DNA of 64,000 nt from an uncultured bacterium (GTDB lineage Bacteria; Bacillota_I; Bacilli_A; RF39; UBA660), in NCBI GenBank assembly GCA_946611605.1, contig CAMODU010000001.1:170-64169 (forward strand). Direction: 5' to 3'. Made by a program: the position numbers and the translations under genes. Below are positions 40,629 to 48,024 of this stretch, one piece after another (the first letter of the stretch is position 1; the number at the start of each line of letters is the position of its first letter). The notes under the pieces were generated by a model, which saw nothing but the letters and a program-made list of their open reading frames with translations, was not told the origin of the DNA and made no database searches.

Positions 40629-41393
40629 TTATAAACCTTTTTTACTTGTTTTTGCAACTTGATACTTAGAAATAAACTTCATAGCTAACTTTTTAGGTAT
40701 AAATTTATATAAGAATAATCCAAGTTTAATTCTTAATCCTGGAATAATAGTCATCTTACCTTTTAGCATTCCATCTACTGCTATCTTAGCTACCCTATCA
40801 GCTTTCATTCCTTTTCCTACAAATGTTCCACCTGCTACTTTATTAAATTCAGTATCAACAGGTCCAGGGCATAAAGACGATATCTTAACATGAGATTTCA
40901 TTTCTTTTAATTCTTGATAGATAGCTTCATCTAATCTACATACATAATTCTTAGTTGCGTAGTAAGTAGATAAATGAGGTCCTGACATAAATCCTGCAGA
41001 TGATGCAACATTTAATATATATCCTTTATCTTTCTTTATAAAATCATATAAGAATAATTTAGTCATATAATGAACTGCTTTAATATTAACATCTATCATT
41101 TCAAATTCTCTAGTTATATCAGTTTCATTGAAATTACCAAATAAACCAAATCCAGCATTATTAACTACAATATCTATATCTTCATTTCTAACTTCTTTAT
41201 ATAAATATTCTATATTCTTCATATCAGATATATCTAATTGATAGCATTTAACATTAACAGGTAATACACTCTTTAATTCTTTTAATACTAATCCTCTTCT
41301 TGCAACTAATATTAAATCTATTCCTCTTGATGCTAATTCATATGCTATAGCTTTACCTATACCTGAAGATGCTCCAGTTATTAATGCTTTCAT
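40629..41393 (-). CDS. SDR family oxidoreductase
   Basis: ITGASSGIGKAIAYELA, NAG, YxxxK. 254 aa. Confidence 0.8.
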   Translation of the reverse strand: MKALITGASSGIGKAIAYELASRGIDLILVARRGLVLKELKSVLPVNVKCYQLDISDMKNIEYLYKEVRNEDIDIVVNNAGFGLFGNFNETDITREFEMIDVNIKAVHYMTKLFLYDFIKKDKGYILNVASSAGFMSGPHLSTYYATKNYVCRLDEAIYQELKEMKSHVKISSLCPGPVDTEFNKVAGGTFVGKGMKADRVAKIAVDGMLKGKMTIIPGLRIKLGLFLYKFIPKKLAMKFISKYQVAKTSKKGL

Positions 41394-41911
41394 TTATTAC
41401 CTCCAAATATAGATAATACTTTACTTAAAGATAAGATAATATTATCAGCATTCTTAATTGCTATTTGTTTAAAGATAGCTTTACCACCTACAGTAAAAGC
41501 AGATATAAATGCTGCTAATACTATACTTACTATAGTATTATTTATATTTAATGTATTAGATAAACTAATAGCTAGTATTGCACCTATAGAACCAGATATA
41601 ATACCACATATATCTCCTACTATATCATTACAAATAGATGATATCTTATTATTATTCTTAACTATATATATACCTTGTTTAGCACCTTTAATTTTCTTAC
41701 TATTTAAAGCATGAAATGTTGCTTCATTTGCCGATATAGCAGCAGTACCAATTACATCAAATAAAATACCAAATGATATAGTTAATACTAATATAATAAA
41801 GAATAATATATTATTACCTGTTAATACTATTAAATTAGATACAGTACTAAATATTATAGATAATATAAATGTTAATAAAAATACAATTAATATCCAATGA
41901 TCTTTTTTCAT
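41390..41911 (-). CDS. small polytopic membrane protein (4-5 TM), unknown function
   Basis: Hydrophobicity pattern only. Confidence 0.45.
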   Translation of the reverse strand: MKKDHWILIVFLLTFILSIIFSTVSNLIVLTGNNILFFIILVLTISFGILFDVIGTAAISANEATFHALNSKKIKGAKQGIYIVKNNNKISSICNDIVGDICGIISGSIGAILAISLSNTLNINNTIVSIVLAAFISAFTVGGKAIFKQIAIKNADNIILSLSKVLSIFGGNK

Positions 41912-41940
41912 TTAAACCACCATGAAATAATTATACCAAA

Positions 41941-41962
41941 TAAAAAGATAGTATTAAACTAT
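41941..41962 (-). terminator. rho-independent terminator (copy 1 of duplicated cassette terminator)
   Basis: AAGATAGT-attaa-ACTATCTT followed by TTTTATTTGG on minus. A near-identical copy lies at 43714-43736. Confidence 0.5.
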
Positions 41963-41963
41963 C

Positions 41964-43691
41964 TTAATATCTATTATAGTATGTTTTCTTACTATATACT
42001 TTATATATCTTAAATGATATTAGTAATAATACTATTATAGTAAATGTATTTTTAAATACTCCTGTCTTAGGATTTTCTTTTATTTCTTCTACACCTTTTA
42101 CTTTTTCTTCAGTATAAATAATATTAAATGTTGAAGGAGTAGGATTATTTCTTGGTCTTATTGCTAATGTTGTATCTATATCTATATAGTTTCTTCCAAT
42201 TTCATTTCCTTCATCATCTTTAATTGGAACATATCCCATCTTCATATATGTTACAAAATCACTTGATATTAATGTGATATTAGAATTAGGAAAATACCAA
42301 TATGAATCAGATTGATCTAATATACTTTCAAAATCTCGCTTATCATGTTGAACACCTTCATATTCATAAGTTTCTAATAAAGGATATTCATTTCTATTGC
42401 CTATCTTAACAACACTTAATGAATCAGCTTCATAGAACACTCCCCATGACATTTTACCTCTATAAGGCAAATTAACATATTTAGCATCTTGATTAAATAA
42501 CAACATATAATCCAATATTTTACGATTCATTAAAGAACCAAAATTAACACCAGTAAAATCTAATGACTCAGTTCCACCATAATAAGTAAAATATTCAGTA
42601 TCAGCATAGCTATAAGTTGCTCCATTCATAGCTGAACTAAAATCAAGATTACTAATATTAACATGTTTCAATGAAGGAGTACCAGTTAAAAAGTAATGCC
42701 AACTTTCAACTTTGGATGTATCGAAGTTATCAATATATAATTCTTCTAATGAATAACAATATGCAAACATATAATACATTGACTTCGCATTTGAAGTATC
42801 CCATGTTGATAAATCTATTGTTTTTAGTGAATAATCGTTATAGAACATATAGTCAAATTTTACTAAATCAGATGTATCTACTTTATCTAAACCTTCTATT
42901 TCTTCAAGATTTGGCATATAGTCAAACATATCATAAGAACGATCTCCTTGTATTTTAATTGGATCTTTGATTATGATTTTCTTAACAACATTCTTATAAT
43001 CATAAGGAAGATAATTAGTACTCCACCAGTCACTATCATCTTCTTTAGCAGGTTCTGCATGATTAATGTAATACTTTCCATCTACTTCTTGATTATATGA
43101 ATACTTACCTGGTTCATCTCTAAAATAGGTTGCAACTTTTGTTTCAGGATCAAAAACGATGTATGCTTCTCCCCATAACTCTTCTTCAGTTGCATGATAT
43201 ATTTTAGCATCTTTTTTTGTAGGACCATGTATATTTAAACTCTCTGGATTTTTTAAATAATTAACAACTATAGGTTTTGCATCAGTTGAATACTTACCAG
43301 CTCCAACTCCAACATATACTATTTCATTATCTAATTGGTAATGATTATCTTTATTATTAACTATATTAATTGTATAAAAGATATTCTCTGATTCATGAGA
43401 ATTGTATCCACATGAAGTTTGATTTCTAGGACAAGACTTAGATCTATCCATATCACGAATATCAAACATATTCTTTAGTGTCTTAAATACTACTTTACCA
43501 TCTTTATCATTTGTAGCAGTATCTATTACTTCACCTTTATCATTTCTTAATTCAAAAGTAAATTCTCCTGCTTCTATATCTTTACCTTGAAGATTAACAT
43601 ATGTTTCTATTGTATATGGATATTCAACAGGTGCTGCAAATACTCCAAATGGTATCAATAATAAGATTAATAATAATAAATATTTCTTCAT
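41964..43691 (-). CDS. cell-wall-anchored surface protein with BspA-type leucine-rich repeats and NPKTG sorting signal
   Basis: Signal peptide. Repeats of the F..C.SL..I.L. type (e.g. MFAYCYSLEELYIDNFDTSKVES). C-terminal NPKTG + hydrophobic + KIYKVYSKK tail. Confidence 0.65.
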   Translation of the reverse strand: MKKYLLLLILLLIPFGVFAAPVEYPYTIETYVNLQGKDIEAGEFTFELRNDKGEVIDTATNDKDGKVVFKTLKNMFDIRDMDRSKSCPRNQTSCGYNSHESENIFYTINIVNNKDNHYQLDNEIVYVGVGAGKYSTDAKPIVVNYLKNPESLNIHGPTKKDAKIYHATEEELWGEAYIVFDPETKVATYFRDEPGKYSYNQEVDGKYYINHAEPAKEDDSDWWSTNYLPYDYKNVVKKIIIKDPIKIQGDRSYDMFDYMPNLEEIEGLDKVDTSDLVKFDYMFYNDYSLKTIDLSTWDTSNAKSMYYMFAYCYSLEELYIDNFDTSKVESWHYFLTGTPSLKHVNISNLDFSSAMNGATYSYADTEYFTYYGGTESLDFTGVNFGSLMNRKILDYMLLFNQDAKYVNLPYRGKMSWGVFYEADSLSVVKIGNRNEYPLLETYEYEGVQHDKRDFESILDQSDSYWYFPNSNITLISSDFVTYMKMGYVPIKDDEGNEIGRNYIDIDTTLAIRPRNNPTPSTFNIIYTEEKVKGVEEIKENPKTGVFKNTFTIIVLLLISFKIYKVYSKKTYYNRY

Positions 43692-43745
43692 ATCATCACC
43701 TACTATAATAATTATAACAAAGAAAAAGATAGTTTATTAACTATC

Positions 43746-45386
43746 TTAATTATATTTATATAATGTTTTACATTTATATTTATGATGAATATATAAACTT
43801 ATCATTAATAAAGCTACTATTAATGAAGTATAAGTAAACACTCCTGTTTTAGGATTAGTTACTTCTTCTTCACCTTTAACTTTACCAAATATATATACAA
43901 ATTCTAAATCATCTTTTATATAATTTTCTGTAGATGGAACTACTTTCCAATAACCTTCTCCATCTCCTAACATACCTGTTGGTATTTCATCAGTTGTTAA
44001 TTTAGTCCAGATATCTTTAGTTATTACTATATCATCAGTAGTACCATCAGCCCAAGTTCCACCTTGTATTTTAAATGTAATAGTTTTCTTAGATGATAAT
44101 GTTACTGAAGAAGATAATTCATCATTTGAATAGAATAATTCATAAATATCTACAGGATCCCACTCATCATCTATATGAATAAGCTTTTGATTTAATTCAG
44201 TATTATTAATGTCAGTCAATTTTAAGCCATCATCTATTTTAATACTATAATATGCAAATGGTAATTCATCTTGATCATTTACTATTTTAAAATATGAATT
44301 ATTAATATTAGCTGAACCATATACAATAATTGATCCTATAAGATTAAAATAACTATCTTTTATATTTAACTCAGCATCATCAGAATAAAATGTCCATGCT
44401 CCTTTTTGATTCCAATAAGTATTATTAATATTTAATTTTTGAGCTGATATATTCCATGAAGCCATATCTTTTATATTTACTATGCAATTATTAAAGTTTA
44501 GATAGTTTGTTAATCCACCTGTTCTTAATGAATTTATATTTAATGTACTATTATCTATATATGCTCCTTTATATAAATTTAATTCGCCTACATCCAAAGT
44601 GGAATTCTTTACTTCTAAATCTCCTGCTACATCAGTATTACCATCAGATTGTAATAAGGCAACACGTATTGTTGAATTCTCAACTATTATTGTTTTTCTT
44701 TCAACAGTTGATGTCCACAAACGGGAATCCTCATCATCAGATTCTATTATTGAATCCACAAACTTAAAATAACCTTGATTAGCATTAGTATAATAAGATT
44801 TAAAACCATGTATATGTGAATTATTAACAATTATATATGGAGAATAATCTATCTTCATAGATTGTGGTTGTATATCAGAATTATTTATAACTACTGGCCC
44901 ATTACCAACAATATAACCTCCAGCTAATTTACAATTATTAATTTCAATACCATCTTTATGTACTTCAATTCTATCATAATTATCTGCTTCAACATTAGTA
45001 AGCTTTGCTGAGTTTAGACGTGATATATTAAAACGGTATGAATTATCAAGAGTTACTATTTTAGTATCATAAATGTTAACATCAGATTTATCCCAATCAT
45101 CATATACATAATCAATTCTTCCTAAACCAACAGGTTTATTATTAGATGTAATAGATATTTGTTTATGTAATAGTATTTCATTTATAATTGTATTTTCATT
45201 TATAGTTAATATATTATTGCTATAAGTGAAATCTTCTGAATAATCATCTACTACAGGTCCATTATAACCATCTTTAACAATTAATGAATCATCAGAGTTT
45301 AATTCTATAAAATAATTACGTGCATATACATTAGATGCAACAAACATAGTTAATAACAATACAATTATCATACATGCTTTTTTCAT
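43746..45386 (-). CDS. cell-wall-anchored surface protein with parallel beta-helix-like Asn-rich repeats and NPKTG sorting signal
   Basis: Signal peptide. Recurrent INN(S/T)/NxS rungs. C-terminal NPKTG + hydrophobic + HHKYKCK tail. Its 5'UTR/RBS is nearly identical to that of the LRR paralog. Confidence 0.6.
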   Translation of the reverse strand: MKKACMIIVLLLTMFVASNVYARNYFIELNSDDSLIVKDGYNGPVVDDYSEDFTYSNNILTINENTIINEILLHKQISITSNNKPVGLGRIDYVYDDWDKSDVNIYDTKIVTLDNSYRFNISRLNSAKLTNVEADNYDRIEVHKDGIEINNCKLAGGYIVGNGPVVINNSDIQPQSMKIDYSPYIIVNNSHIHGFKSYYTNANQGYFKFVDSIIESDDEDSRLWTSTVERKTIIVENSTIRVALLQSDGNTDVAGDLEVKNSTLDVGELNLYKGAYIDNSTLNINSLRTGGLTNYLNFNNCIVNIKDMASWNISAQKLNINNTYWNQKGAWTFYSDDAELNIKDSYFNLIGSIIVYGSANINNSYFKIVNDQDELPFAYYSIKIDDGLKLTDINNTELNQKLIHIDDEWDPVDIYELFYSNDELSSSVTLSSKKTITFKIQGGTWADGTTDDIVITKDIWTKLTTDEIPTGMLGDGEGYWKVVPSTENYIKDDLEFVYIFGKVKGEEEVTNPKTGVFTYTSLIVALLMISLYIHHKYKCKTLYKYN

Positions 45387-45454
45387 ATCATCACCTACTA
45401 TAATGATAACAATTATACAAGTTTATATAAATGTGATTAATAAAATTTGACACA

Positions 45455-45960
45455 AAAAAACATTATCGATTTCCCCCGATAATGTAGTTTTCTATGTGGT
45501 ATATCATAAATCAATTTTACGGCTTAGGTCGAGATGTATTTCACTATATCCCACTTAATATTACTATTAAGCACTTTCGTATTATGAGATATAACTAGAT
45601 ATCTAGTTCCTCGATTGCCACTTAGTCCGCACCTTAATACCTATGACATATACACGCTAGAGGTTTTCCCTAACAATAGTGACTATCCTTATATGCTTTT
45701 GCATTTATTGTTTCATCATATGAATCCCCAACAAACACTCACATCATGTATGTTATTATATTATTTTAGTGACGGGGTTAAAGGAATTTCTAATCAGTTA
45801 CATGCCATTGTAATTATCCTAAAACCTTAAATCATTTAACCACCCAGCCCTGGCAGACCAAGCAATTAAGTGAAGTGTCATGTCTACAATTGGTAGATTT
45901 TTAGCCCTACCTTCAAATAGTATAATGACTAGCATAATGCACCACACATATGTAAATTAT
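45455..45960 (-). ncRNA. candidate large structured non-coding RNA (unclassified); ORF-free ~500-nt transcription unit between two terminators
   Basis: No ORF longer than 71 aa in six frames. GC visibly higher than flanks. Bounded on the minus strand by terminator 45968-45992 (upstream) and hairpin+T7 45461-45484 (downstream). Several internal stems. No tmRNA, RNase P or SRP signatures seen. Confidence 0.3.
45461..45484 (-). terminator. rho-independent terminator
   Basis: CATTATCG-atttcccc-CGATAATG perfect 8-bp stem followed on minus by TTTTTTTGTG. Confidence 0.55.
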
Positions 45961-45967
45961 ATCAAAA

Positions 45968-45992
45968 AAAGTGATTTTTTGCAAATCACTTT
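45968..45992 (-). terminator. rho-independent terminator for gene 45991-46395
   Basis: AAAGTGATTT-tttgc-AAATCACTTT followed on minus by TTTTTTTGAT. Overlaps the stop codon. Confidence 0.55.
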
Positions 45993-46395
45993 ATTTCAAC
46001 ATATCGATTAAAATAGGTAGTTCAAATACAAAGAAACCTATAATAATTACTGCTAATACTAGTATTAATATTAATACCACTTTTGGGTTTTCTTTTTTAA
46101 CTTTTTCTACTTTAACAATATCATTAACTTCATGTAGTTTTTCTATATTAACTTGTTGATTATATAAATCAGCATTACTAACATTGAAGTTAGTTTGAGG
46201 TTTACTCATTTGTTCAGCTTGTTGTTGTATTTCTTCCATAGAAGCTTTTTCTTCTAAAGGAATATCAGCAACAGGATTATTAGCATTTTGTGCTCTAGCT
46301 ATATTCATAGCTTGTTCACTTGTAACCGCTATAGGTGCAGCTACACCTGCATCTAATGTTTGAGTAACAACCTTTACTTCTTTTTCTTCATTCAT
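45991..46395 (-). CDS. small protein with C-terminal TM anchor (134 aa), hypothetical
   Basis: Charged N-terminal region, one C-terminal TM helix. Confidence 0.45.
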   Translation of the reverse strand: MNEEKEVKVVTQTLDAGVAAPIAVTSEQAMNIARAQNANNPVADIPLEEKASMEEIQQQAEQMSKPQTNFNVSNADLYNQQVNIEKLHEVNDIVKVEKVKKENPKVVLILILVLAVIIIGFFVFELPILIDMLK

Positions 46396-46404
46396 TTTAT
46401 CACC

Positions 46405-48024
46405 TTAATTACTAAGTACTTCTAATATACATGGTACCATTTGTTTCTTACGAGATACAACTCCTTCAAGTAAATATCCTTGAGATAACTCTTCTATACC
46501 ATATGCTATTTCTAATATACTCTTAGAATTATCTGAATACAATAGATATGAATTATTATTAATAAAGTCTGTTACATATAATGCACATACTTCATAGTTA
46601 TGTCTATCTACTTCTTTATTTAATTCATCTACTAATTCATTTATTCTGTTCTTATATTGATTAAAGTCTGTTGTAAATATTTGAGATATTGATACTTTAT
46701 GATCATTTACTTCATATTGCTTACAATCTTTAAATACTATATCATCAGCAGGTACTCCTTCAATAGATACACCTGATTCTAATAATTCTATTCCATATTT
46801 ATCAATATTAACAGCAGCTAACTTAGCTAACTCCTTAGCAGCTTCTTTATCATATTCTGTTGTTGTAGGACTCTTTAAACATAATGTATCAGATAATATA
46901 CCAGATAACATAATACCTGCTATATCCCTAGGTATTTCAATATTATAATCTTTATACATTTGATATATTACTGTATTAGATGCACCTACTGCCATAGTTC
47001 TAACATTAATAGGATCCTTGGTAAATAAATCTCCCATATTATGATGATCTACTATTTCTAATATTTCAGCTTCATTTAAACCATCAACTGATTGAGATGG
47101 TGTATTATGATCAACTAATATTACTTTCTTTCTATTAACTTTATTAATATCTACTGTTCTTAACATACCTAAACATTTATTTTCGTTATTAATGATAGGA
47201 TAGTTAGTATGTTTTAATCTTTCTATAACATCTATAGCATCAGATAGATACATATTAATATTAAATGTTGTACACTTTTCATTTCTTTGAATAGTCTTAA
47301 TAGGATTAGCTAAACACATAACTCTTGCAACTTTAAATGAAGATTTATTAGCAGAAATAATATTTATATTATTTTGAGCAGCTAATCTCATTTGATCTTC
47401 AGTTAACTCTTTAGCATGAACCATGATAATAAGTTTTACTCCAACTTTTAATGCATGTTCAATTATTTGTTTTCTATCTCCAACTATTAATATACTTTTA
47501 TTATCTAATGGTATTTCTTTAATAAATGTTGCATCATCAAATGTTGTAGCATGAGCATATCCTTCTATATGATCATCTACTTTATAATAACTCTTAGCAT
47601 CTAATACTTTAACTAGATTATCAAATGATGTATCTACATATAATGATTCATTATAAATCATATCTGCAGCTATTTCTTTTAAAGAAACATATCCTTTAAA
47701 TCTATCTTCATCATCTACTAAAGGTACACCTGTAATTCCATTATCATGCATAAAATTAAAGGCATCTATAATAGCAGTATTTTCATTTATCATATATTCT
47801 TTATTATATGCTACATCTTTAATTTGTAATTTAACATCATTTAAATATTCAGGGACTTTAATCTTAAATCTATTTAAAGCAAATTGTGTTTCTTGATTAA
47901 TAGCACCTAATATTCTAGGCTCAGCATGAACACCTAACTTATACTTTAAATATGATAAACTAATAGATCCTGTTACAGCATCTGTATCTGGATTCTTATG
48001 ACCAATTACAAATATTTTATCCAT
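46405..48024 (-). CDS. ppaC: CBS-domain-containing family II (Mn-dependent, DHH-DHHA2) inorganic pyrophosphatase
   Basis: N-terminus FVIGHKNPDTDAV (DHH). Central CBS pair insert. C-terminal DHHA2-type region with DHHN, GxxSxT-like motifs. Confidence 0.75.
   Translation of the reverse strand: MDKIFVIGHKNPDTDAVTGSISLSYLKYKLGVHAEPRILGAINQETQFALNRFKIKVPEYLNDVKLQIKDVAYNKEYMINENTAIIDAFNFMHDNGITGVPLVDDEDRFKGYVSLKEIAADMIYNESLYVDTSFDNLVKVLDAKSYYKVDDHIEGYAHATTFDDATFIKEIPLDNKSILIVGDRKQIIEHALKVGVKLIIMVHAKELTEDQMRLAAQNNINIISANKSSFKVARVMCLANPIKTIQRNEKCTTFNINMYLSDAIDVIERLKHTNYPIINNENKCLGMLRTVDINKVNRKKVILVDHNTPSQSVDGLNEAEILEIVDHHNMGDLFTKDPINVRTMAVGASNTVIYQMYKDYNIEIPRDIAGIMLSGILSDTLCLKSPTTTEYDKEAAKELAKLAAVNIDKYGIELLESGVSIEGVPADDIVFKDCKQYEVNDHKVSISQIFTTDFNQYKNRINELVDELNKEVDRHNYEVCALYVTDFINNNSYLLYSDNSKSILEIAYGIEELSQGYLLEGVVSRKKQMVPCILEVLSN

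Follow-up and report, generated by a model that had tools for sequence, protein, structure and literature searches.

The minus strand at positions 45455-45960 of the 64,000-nt stretch of DNA analyzed here (hereafter the window) almost certainly carries a gene for OLE RNA, in a reduced form without the stems P7 and P8 ("variant 2"). The gene is real but already known: the class reportedly dates from 2006, when Puerta-Fernandez et al. described the ornate, large, extremophilic (OLE) RNA, and the reduced form, too, is already published. A sequence-only reading had proposed a large structured non-coding RNA in this region, within the size class of OLE, GOLLD and ROOL, but had recognized no known family. 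The size class was right, while the lack of a recognizable family and the novelty this implied did not survive a 204-bit match to the Rfam family RF01071.

An RNA of the OLE family

The Infernal search against Rfam that had been suggested as a check identifies OLE RNA at once. RF01071 (OLE) is the sole Rfam 15 match at gathering threshold in the 64-kb window; it extends over 45961..45480 on the minus strand (482 nt) and covers model positions 1-616, untruncated, with 204.3 bits (E = 6e-56), about four times the gathering score of 50. This score is low for the family, since full-length OLE RNAs score far higher, and the cut-off of 235 bits used by Fernando and Breaker belongs to their own OLE model and is not comparable with Rfam bits. 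Among the highly conserved (upper-case) positions of the consensus, 165 of 234 are identical in the window copy and 14 lie in deleted stems, and in a MAFFT alignment the window copy agrees with 69 homologues at all columns in which these are invariant. The coordinates of the gene and its surroundings are collected in Table 1.

Table 1. Features of the ole locus in the window, with the basis for each assignment.
Feature	Position	Strand	Basis
OLE RNA gene (ole), ~495-nt predicted transcript	45455..45949	-	RF01071, covariation in 69 homologues, -10 box, terminator
ole promoter (TTGCAA, 17-nt spacer, TGaTATAAT)	45956..45984	-	10/12 consensus matches plus TG extension
ole intrinsic terminator: 10-bp stem 45485..45460 (3 G-C pairs), 6-nt loop, T6-7	45453..45485	-	
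Weak intrinsic-terminator hairpin of the upstream 134-aa gene	45968..45992	-	Read from sequence
Closing helix, 5' strand (UGUGUGGU), overlapping the conserved GUGGUGCA block	45941..45948	-	MFE fold and 69 sequences
Closing helix, 3' strand, pairing with 45941-45948	45493..45500	-	MFE fold and 69 sequences
A/U-rich unpaired linker in place of P7/P8	45746..45775	-	RF01071 alignment
Truncated P13 hairpin AACUAG-AUAU-CUAGUU (the 16-nt palindrome)	45593..45608	-	RF01071 alignment
3' domain (P12 to P15 region)	45511..45650	-	Alignment, pair projection, covariation (helices 9-16)
oapA, 173 aa, OLE-associated membrane protein A	41390..41911	-	CNNM match, DxxxD, Foldseek, synteny with OLE
Promoter-like site upstream of oapA (TTAATA, 16-nt spacer, TGgTATAAT)	41930..41957	-	Consensus match only
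Two surface-protein genes (546 aa, 575 aa), C-terminal NPKTG and transmembrane tail	41964..45386	-	Outside the OLE system

An undescribed class of large ornate RNA would fit the size and degree of structure of the region and the fact that no match had been found by eye. Its probability is nevertheless negligible, given a full-length RF01071 match at four times the gathering score, an oapA gene in the locus, and the presence of all OLE signature blocks: GUGGUGCA, CUAGUCA, CUAAAAAUC, CAAUGGCAUG, UGCAAAAG and GGAAAAC, followed by GUGCGGACUAAGUGG.AAUC, GACCUAAGCCGUAAAAUU and GACCUAAGCC.UAAAAUU. GOLLD and ROOL resemble OLE in being large, highly structured RNAs of unknown biochemistry; neither matches the window at gathering score, and neither is tied to oapA. 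The absence of tmRNA, RNase P and SRP hallmarks, noted at the outset, agrees with the Rfam scan, which returned no match to any of the three anywhere in the window. A match to JPX_2 at 45960-46029 (18 bits, E = 0.46) was dismissed as chance, JPX_2 being a eukaryotic lncRNA fragment.

The OLE RNA encoded here has the conserved multi-stem architecture of its family, closed by a helix that joins its two ends. When the pairs of the model are projected on the window copy, 101 of 104 are canonical. The comparative covariation analysis that the sequence-only reading had called for was carried out by counting the Rfam-derived pairs on a structure-independent MAFFT alignment of 69 OLE homologues: 88.3% of the cells form a standard pair, as against 38-41% when the 3' partner is slid by 1-3 columns; 66 of 102 pairs show changes on both sides (28-38 when slid); and the covariation score is 0.392 (0.07-0.11 when slid), a value reached in none of 500 shuffles. 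The minimum free energy (MFE) of the 496-nt transcript lies at z = -2.84 relative to shuffles, and most consensus stems are recovered in this fold without constraint. The closing helix is an extra element of the MFE fold, with 8 bp (45948-45941 with 45500-45493); across the 69 sequences its positions are paired in 86.9% of cases, compared with 26-61% when slid, with UA and AU exchanged at 41:21. The 3' domain contains the invariant blocks GUGCGGACUAAGUGG.AAUCGAG and GACCUAAGCCGUAAAAUU and keeps the P14.1 hairpin with its GUAA loop. Two of the internal stems originally picked out by eye, GGUAG...CUACC and GCUUAAUA-GUA-UAUUAAGU, belong to the family consensus. The third, AACCCC...GGGGAU, had to be rejected as unsupported by the OLE consensus structure, in which AACC pairs upstream in another stem and GGGGAU falls in the internal loop of the next.

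The region had been described as free of ORFs above 71 aa and richer in GC than its flanks, and both descriptions are accurate: the longest ORF in 45455-45960 has 71 aa (45615..45830, + strand), and GC is 0.30-0.34 across 45400-45999 as against 0.21-0.27 in the flanks. We rejected this ORF as a coding gene, as it is unconserved: any frame free of stops across the aligned stretch is found in just 3 of 68 relatives. The same ORF, on the strand opposite to ole, and the position of the region upstream of and on the same strand as the gene at 43746..45386 might be taken to indicate a degraded protein-coding gene, or else a long leader or regulatory 5'UTR of that surface-protein gene. Neither is credible in our view. 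The substitutions preserve base pairs and not codons, which, together with the lack of conservation of the ORF, makes the RNA reading secure and excludes a pseudogene or a UTR; a decayed pseudogene had been named beforehand as an outcome that would overturn the RNA proposal. Moreover, the region ends in a terminator, and a separate promoter-like site and RBS follow before the surface-protein gene, in line with the original argument that this is a transcription unit of its own, and in the relatives the gene downstream is oapA rather than a surface-protein gene.

Reduced stems and protein-binding sites

Three kinds of OLE RNA were distinguished by Fernando and Breaker in 2024, namely full-length OLE, variant 1 and variant 2 (PMC11332333). 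Variant 1 has a short P7 to P9, often lacks the OapB site on P13 and is typical of TANB77, variant 2 has neither P7 nor P8 and is typical of RF39, and both lineages are largely without OapB and OapC (PMC11332333). On its sequence, the window copy is a variant 2 RNA, P7/P8 being wholly absent and other conserved nucleotides retained; this call rests on the loss of stems, as the score bins of those authors (235-310 bits) belong to their own model. The P numbers used here were inferred from PMC11332333 and PMC12286853.

Compared with the full-length OLE RNAs of Halalkalibacterium halodurans and Clostridium acetobutylicum, the window copy has the same conserved blocks, the same order and pairing of stems, an accompanying oapA and a Bacillota host. 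It is not of the full-length type, for which about 600 nt, P7, P8 and an extended P9 are expected, as opposed to about 495 nt here. In the RF01071 alignment, the 80 model positions of the P7/P8 region (~197-277) are replaced by 23 nt, forming a linker whose length and sequence vary among relatives. Nothing remains of the 44 model positions that make up the tip of P9, and the copy also lacks the small hairpin at model positions 424-435.

P13 is also truncated. The 16-nt palindrome AACTAGATATCTAGTT, which had been located exactly at 45593-45608, turns out to be what is left of this hairpin, without the GNRA tetraloop and without the single-nucleotide bulge; most relatives keep G-GYRA-C at this place. 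Since OapB needs both the P13 GNRA tetraloop and the bulge (PMC7936274), the window copy would have no OapB site, unlike full-length OLE. The window shares this truncation with L029 and a few further loci, and as ole and oapA are still adjacent in L029, it is older than their separation in the window.

The site of OapC is a k-turn to which J4a/5, J5/6 and P6 (left shoulder) contribute and in which a C-G pair adjoins a 3-nt bulge (PMC9723947). By our manual reading of the RF01071 alignment, its 3' strand UUAAGG is conserved in the window copy, while the 5' strand reads GACAUGACA against a consensus of UCGAUGAAG and the C-G pair is not in the same register. With the OapB site missing and one strand of the OapC k-turn altered, part of the known ribonucleoprotein (RNP) would be unable to form.

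The window copy shares with the published variant 2 (Fernando and Breaker, mSphere 2024, PMC11332333) the complete lack of P7/P8 and an origin in uncultured gut Bacilli with small genomes, and the loss of the P13 site fits a lineage without OapB and OapC. It differs in that the loss of the P13 GNRA loop and OapB site was published for variant 1 and is here combined with the loss of P7/P8, and in the separation of ole from oapA, which is not described in PMC11332333. Two of the related loci contain still shorter OLE RNAs: L064:9617-9994 and L070:9616-9996 are only about 380 nt long (Rfam 136 and 134 bits), stand directly upstream of oapA and lack P5 and P6, including the k-turn region, besides P7 and P8. 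They are smaller than either variant in PMC11332333.

The oapA partner and the predicted autonomy of ole

OLE is defined by its near-obligate tie to oapA, which encodes a small, four-helix, CNNM-like membrane protein with a DxxxD motif (PMC11332333). The window contains such a gene on the same strand as ole, 3,544 nt downstream, the gene adjoining ole being one for a surface protein. The 173-aa product matches Pfam CNNM (PF01595) with 25.9 bits, below the gathering score of the family, and sub-threshold CNNM similarity is also reported for OapA (PMC11332333). The DxxxD motif, D96-I-V-G-D100, lies inside a C-N-D-x-V-G-D motif in which C, N, both D and G are invariant, and V98 nearly so, among 14 diverse homologues; in OapA this motif sets the protein apart from true CNNM domains, where it is absent (PMC11332333). 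Sequence matches in the PDB are confined to MtCorB (7M1T/7M1U). The AlphaFold model (pLDDT 76.5) has long helices at residues 3-29, 34-60, 87-121 and 125-153, which may be read as four transmembrane helices, and its Foldseek PDB matches 1-4 are again MtCorB (7M1T/7M1U; probability 0.99-1.00, TM-score 0.46-0.60), which PMC11332333 reports as the best match of H. halodurans OapA as well. The protein has DxxxD and four long predicted helices in common with the latter (WP_010898928.1), to which it was likened by description and not by sequence. Weak CNNM (PF01595) similarity and MtCorB as the closest solved structure link it to the CNNM/CorB/MpfA Mg2+ transporters, but it has neither the CBS nor the CorC domains of CorB and MpfA.

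For the wider association we assembled 80 loci by scanning one genome per species with the family of the 173-aa protein, and then sought OLE by nhmmer with the window RNA. Of the 74 loci that could be assessed, 72 have OLE 0-99 nt ahead of the oapA homologue, which confirms the association and identifies the 173-aa protein as OapA. The loci derive from uncultured gut or rumen metagenome-assembled genomes (MAGs) labelled Bacilli, Bacillota, Tenericutes, Mollicutes or Erysipelotrichaceae, apart from a small number of bins whose labels are evidently wrong. One of them, L052, is Clostridium sp. CAG:628, and the GTDB genus CAG-628 belongs to order RF39, family UBA660 (bioRxiv 10.1101/2021.05.11.441322). 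Judged from these relatives, the host is a member of the Bacillota, as expected for OLE.

The gene carries its own promoter and terminator motifs. Of 69 related OLE loci, 68 have a TG-extended promoter 6-13 nt before the conserved xUGGWGCA, and because the promoter lies just ahead of this block, the Rfam match in fact begins with the -10 box, which makes up its first six positions. From the position of this box the transcript probably starts with an A at about 45949, at the closing helix, and from that of the terminator its 3' end would be at about 45455. The minus-strand terminator that the sequence-only reading had placed downstream is well founded: terminator-like sites in the region number two (the same hairpin on either strand), whereas 0.2 are expected in shuffles. 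The hairpin that it had placed upstream also exists. It consists of AAAGTGATT-loop-AATCACTTT and a T run, with the -35 element of the ole promoter in its loop, and it failed our terminator scan because it contains just 2 G-C pairs and the rule demands three. An identical hairpin is found at 45964-45992 of the window and at L029:7607-7635 despite different genes upstream, that of the 134-aa protein in the window and a pyrophosphatase gene in L029. To judge by these two sequences, putative terminator and promoter are fused here in one conserved module.

A terminator between ole and oapA is exceptional. In most relatives 22-45 nt separate the 3' end of OLE from the start codon of oapA and there is no terminator, which implies co-transcription. 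Homologous ole terminators before oapA occur only in the subclade of the window (L029, L014, L004, L008, L011, L024, L040, L006); they have the form ACTTTA..GGGG..TAAAGT followed by Ts, with a new promoter also between OLE and oapA. The gene order in this subclade is membrane protein, CBS-DHH pyrophosphatase, (134-aa protein), ole, oapA, SDR, Band-7. The window keeps this order and differs by two genes for NPKTG surface proteins between ole and oapA. In contrast to full-length OLE, ole here has its own terminator, would not be co-transcribed with oapA and lies 3.5 kb away from it.

Upstream of ole, the pyrophosphatase gene of the window (46405-48024; CBS-domain, DHH-family, Mn-dependent) has counterparts upstream of ole in L004, L011, L012, L014, L024, L027, L029 and L040, in L027 at a distance of several kb. 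The gene for the 134-aa protein (45991-46395) stands between the pyrophosphatase gene and ole; its product ends in a hydrophobic helix and has no family match. L014 has a homologue (40% identity) in the corresponding place and L008 a partial match (33% identity) upstream of OLE; L029 and L004 lack the gene.

The two surface-protein genes, at 41964-43691 and 43746-45386, together take up 3.5 kb and are absent between ole and oapA in L029, L004, L014 and other syntenic loci. Both products are large and secreted, one with DUF285/PARCEL repeats and the other without a family match, and all they have in common is the C-terminal end, with a VKGxEE..NPKTGVF motif, a hydrophobic helix and a basic tail. 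This ending resembles a sortase-B-type sorting signal. Each gene is followed by a near-identical intergenic module (41912-41963 and 43692-43745), in which a terminator-like, AT-rich hairpin (AAGATAGTT..ACTATCTT) and its T run come before TGnTATAAT, an RBS and a start codon; by its sequence the repeated module looks like a cassette boundary. That the insertion is specific to the window holds only in part, because an NPKTG protein gene also lies upstream of oapA in L002, the closest relative by OapA (83% identity), on a contig that ends before any OLE. In another lineage, L006:3378-5328 is a 1.95-kb insertion with a 409-aa ORF between OLE and oapA, which we read as independent of that in the window. 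The genes upstream of OLE in L006 look phage-like, and a 211-aa ORF among them resembles, by eye, an M23-type peptidase with a LysM repeat.

The same features raise the question of whether the window copy is a decaying, non-functional relic, stranded when surface-protein genes were inserted before oapA. Its distance of 3.5 kb from oapA, unlike nearly all relatives, the loss of the P13 GNRA loop and bulge and of the P9 tip, and an Rfam score of 204 bits compared with 252 bits for the relative L006 would all be in keeping with decay, and rare defective OLE genes are reported (PMC11332333). We nevertheless regard a relic as very unlikely. Every nucleotide invariant across the 69 homologues is present, nearly all pairs (101 of 104) are canonical, and promoter and terminator are intact; oapA is likewise intact with its DxxxD motif, whereas the published defective copies sit in genomes without oapA (PMC11332333). 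The truncation of P13, being found also in L029 where ole and oapA are adjacent, predates the split and has been maintained.

Proposed working and significance

OLE has been tied to Mg2+ homeostasis. To our knowledge, the biochemical function of the OLE RNP is not known in any organism, and how OLE works therefore rests on genetics in one distant bacterium. In the systems of H. halodurans and C. acetobutylicum the RNA dimerizes and binds OapA dimers at the membrane, and cells depend on OLE to tolerate ethanol, cold, raised Mg2+ and poor carbon sources (PMC11332333, PMC9723947, PMC12286853, PMC12265935).

For the reduced OLE RNA of the window we propose the following scenario. Its own near-consensus, TG-extended promoter of the sigma-70 type would drive minus-strand transcription of ole, from about 45949 as far as about 45455, giving a transcript of about 495 nt that would fold into the OLE architecture with its ends closed by a helix. 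By analogy with H. halodurans, this RNA would bind the OapA encoded at 41390..41911, and the membrane-anchored OLE-OapA RNP may help the cell against alcohol, cold, excess Mg2+ and poor carbon sources; the binding of RNA to protein, the localization at the membrane and the role in stress are all carried over from published work on other species. The window OLE probably works with OapA alone, as has been proposed for the RF39 and TANB77 gut lineages. As to the origin of the arrangement, ole and oapA may first have become separately transcribed, and the insertions between them would have come after; we infer that it was separate transcription that made such insertions tolerable.

The discovery value of the locus is small, as any standard Rfam annotation labels it OLE and the short RF39-type form was published in 2024; that ole is separate from oapA, has a terminator of its own and carries a truncated P13 amounts to minor variation. 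As validation it has some value, in that a reading confined to the raw sequence rightly recognized a large structured RNA. A more ambitious interpretation is that of a natural minimal, uncoupled OLE system, which has lost P7, P8, the distal part of P9 and the OapB site, is transcribed autonomously and stands apart from oapA, with sortase-type (NPKTG) surface-protein genes in between. We consider this speculative and rather improbable. If it were a functional arrangement, co-expression of ole and oapA in cis would be dispensable and about 480 nt would be enough for OLE function with OapA alone; the clade with the copies of about 380 nt in L064 and L070 would then define an irreducible OLE core, of use in structural studies of the still unresolved 3' domain. 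At the least, the window copy of about 480 nt and these copies of about 380 nt may help to define the minimal functional core of OLE RNA, and the locus shows ole becoming autonomous in one small subclade and then separable from oapA.
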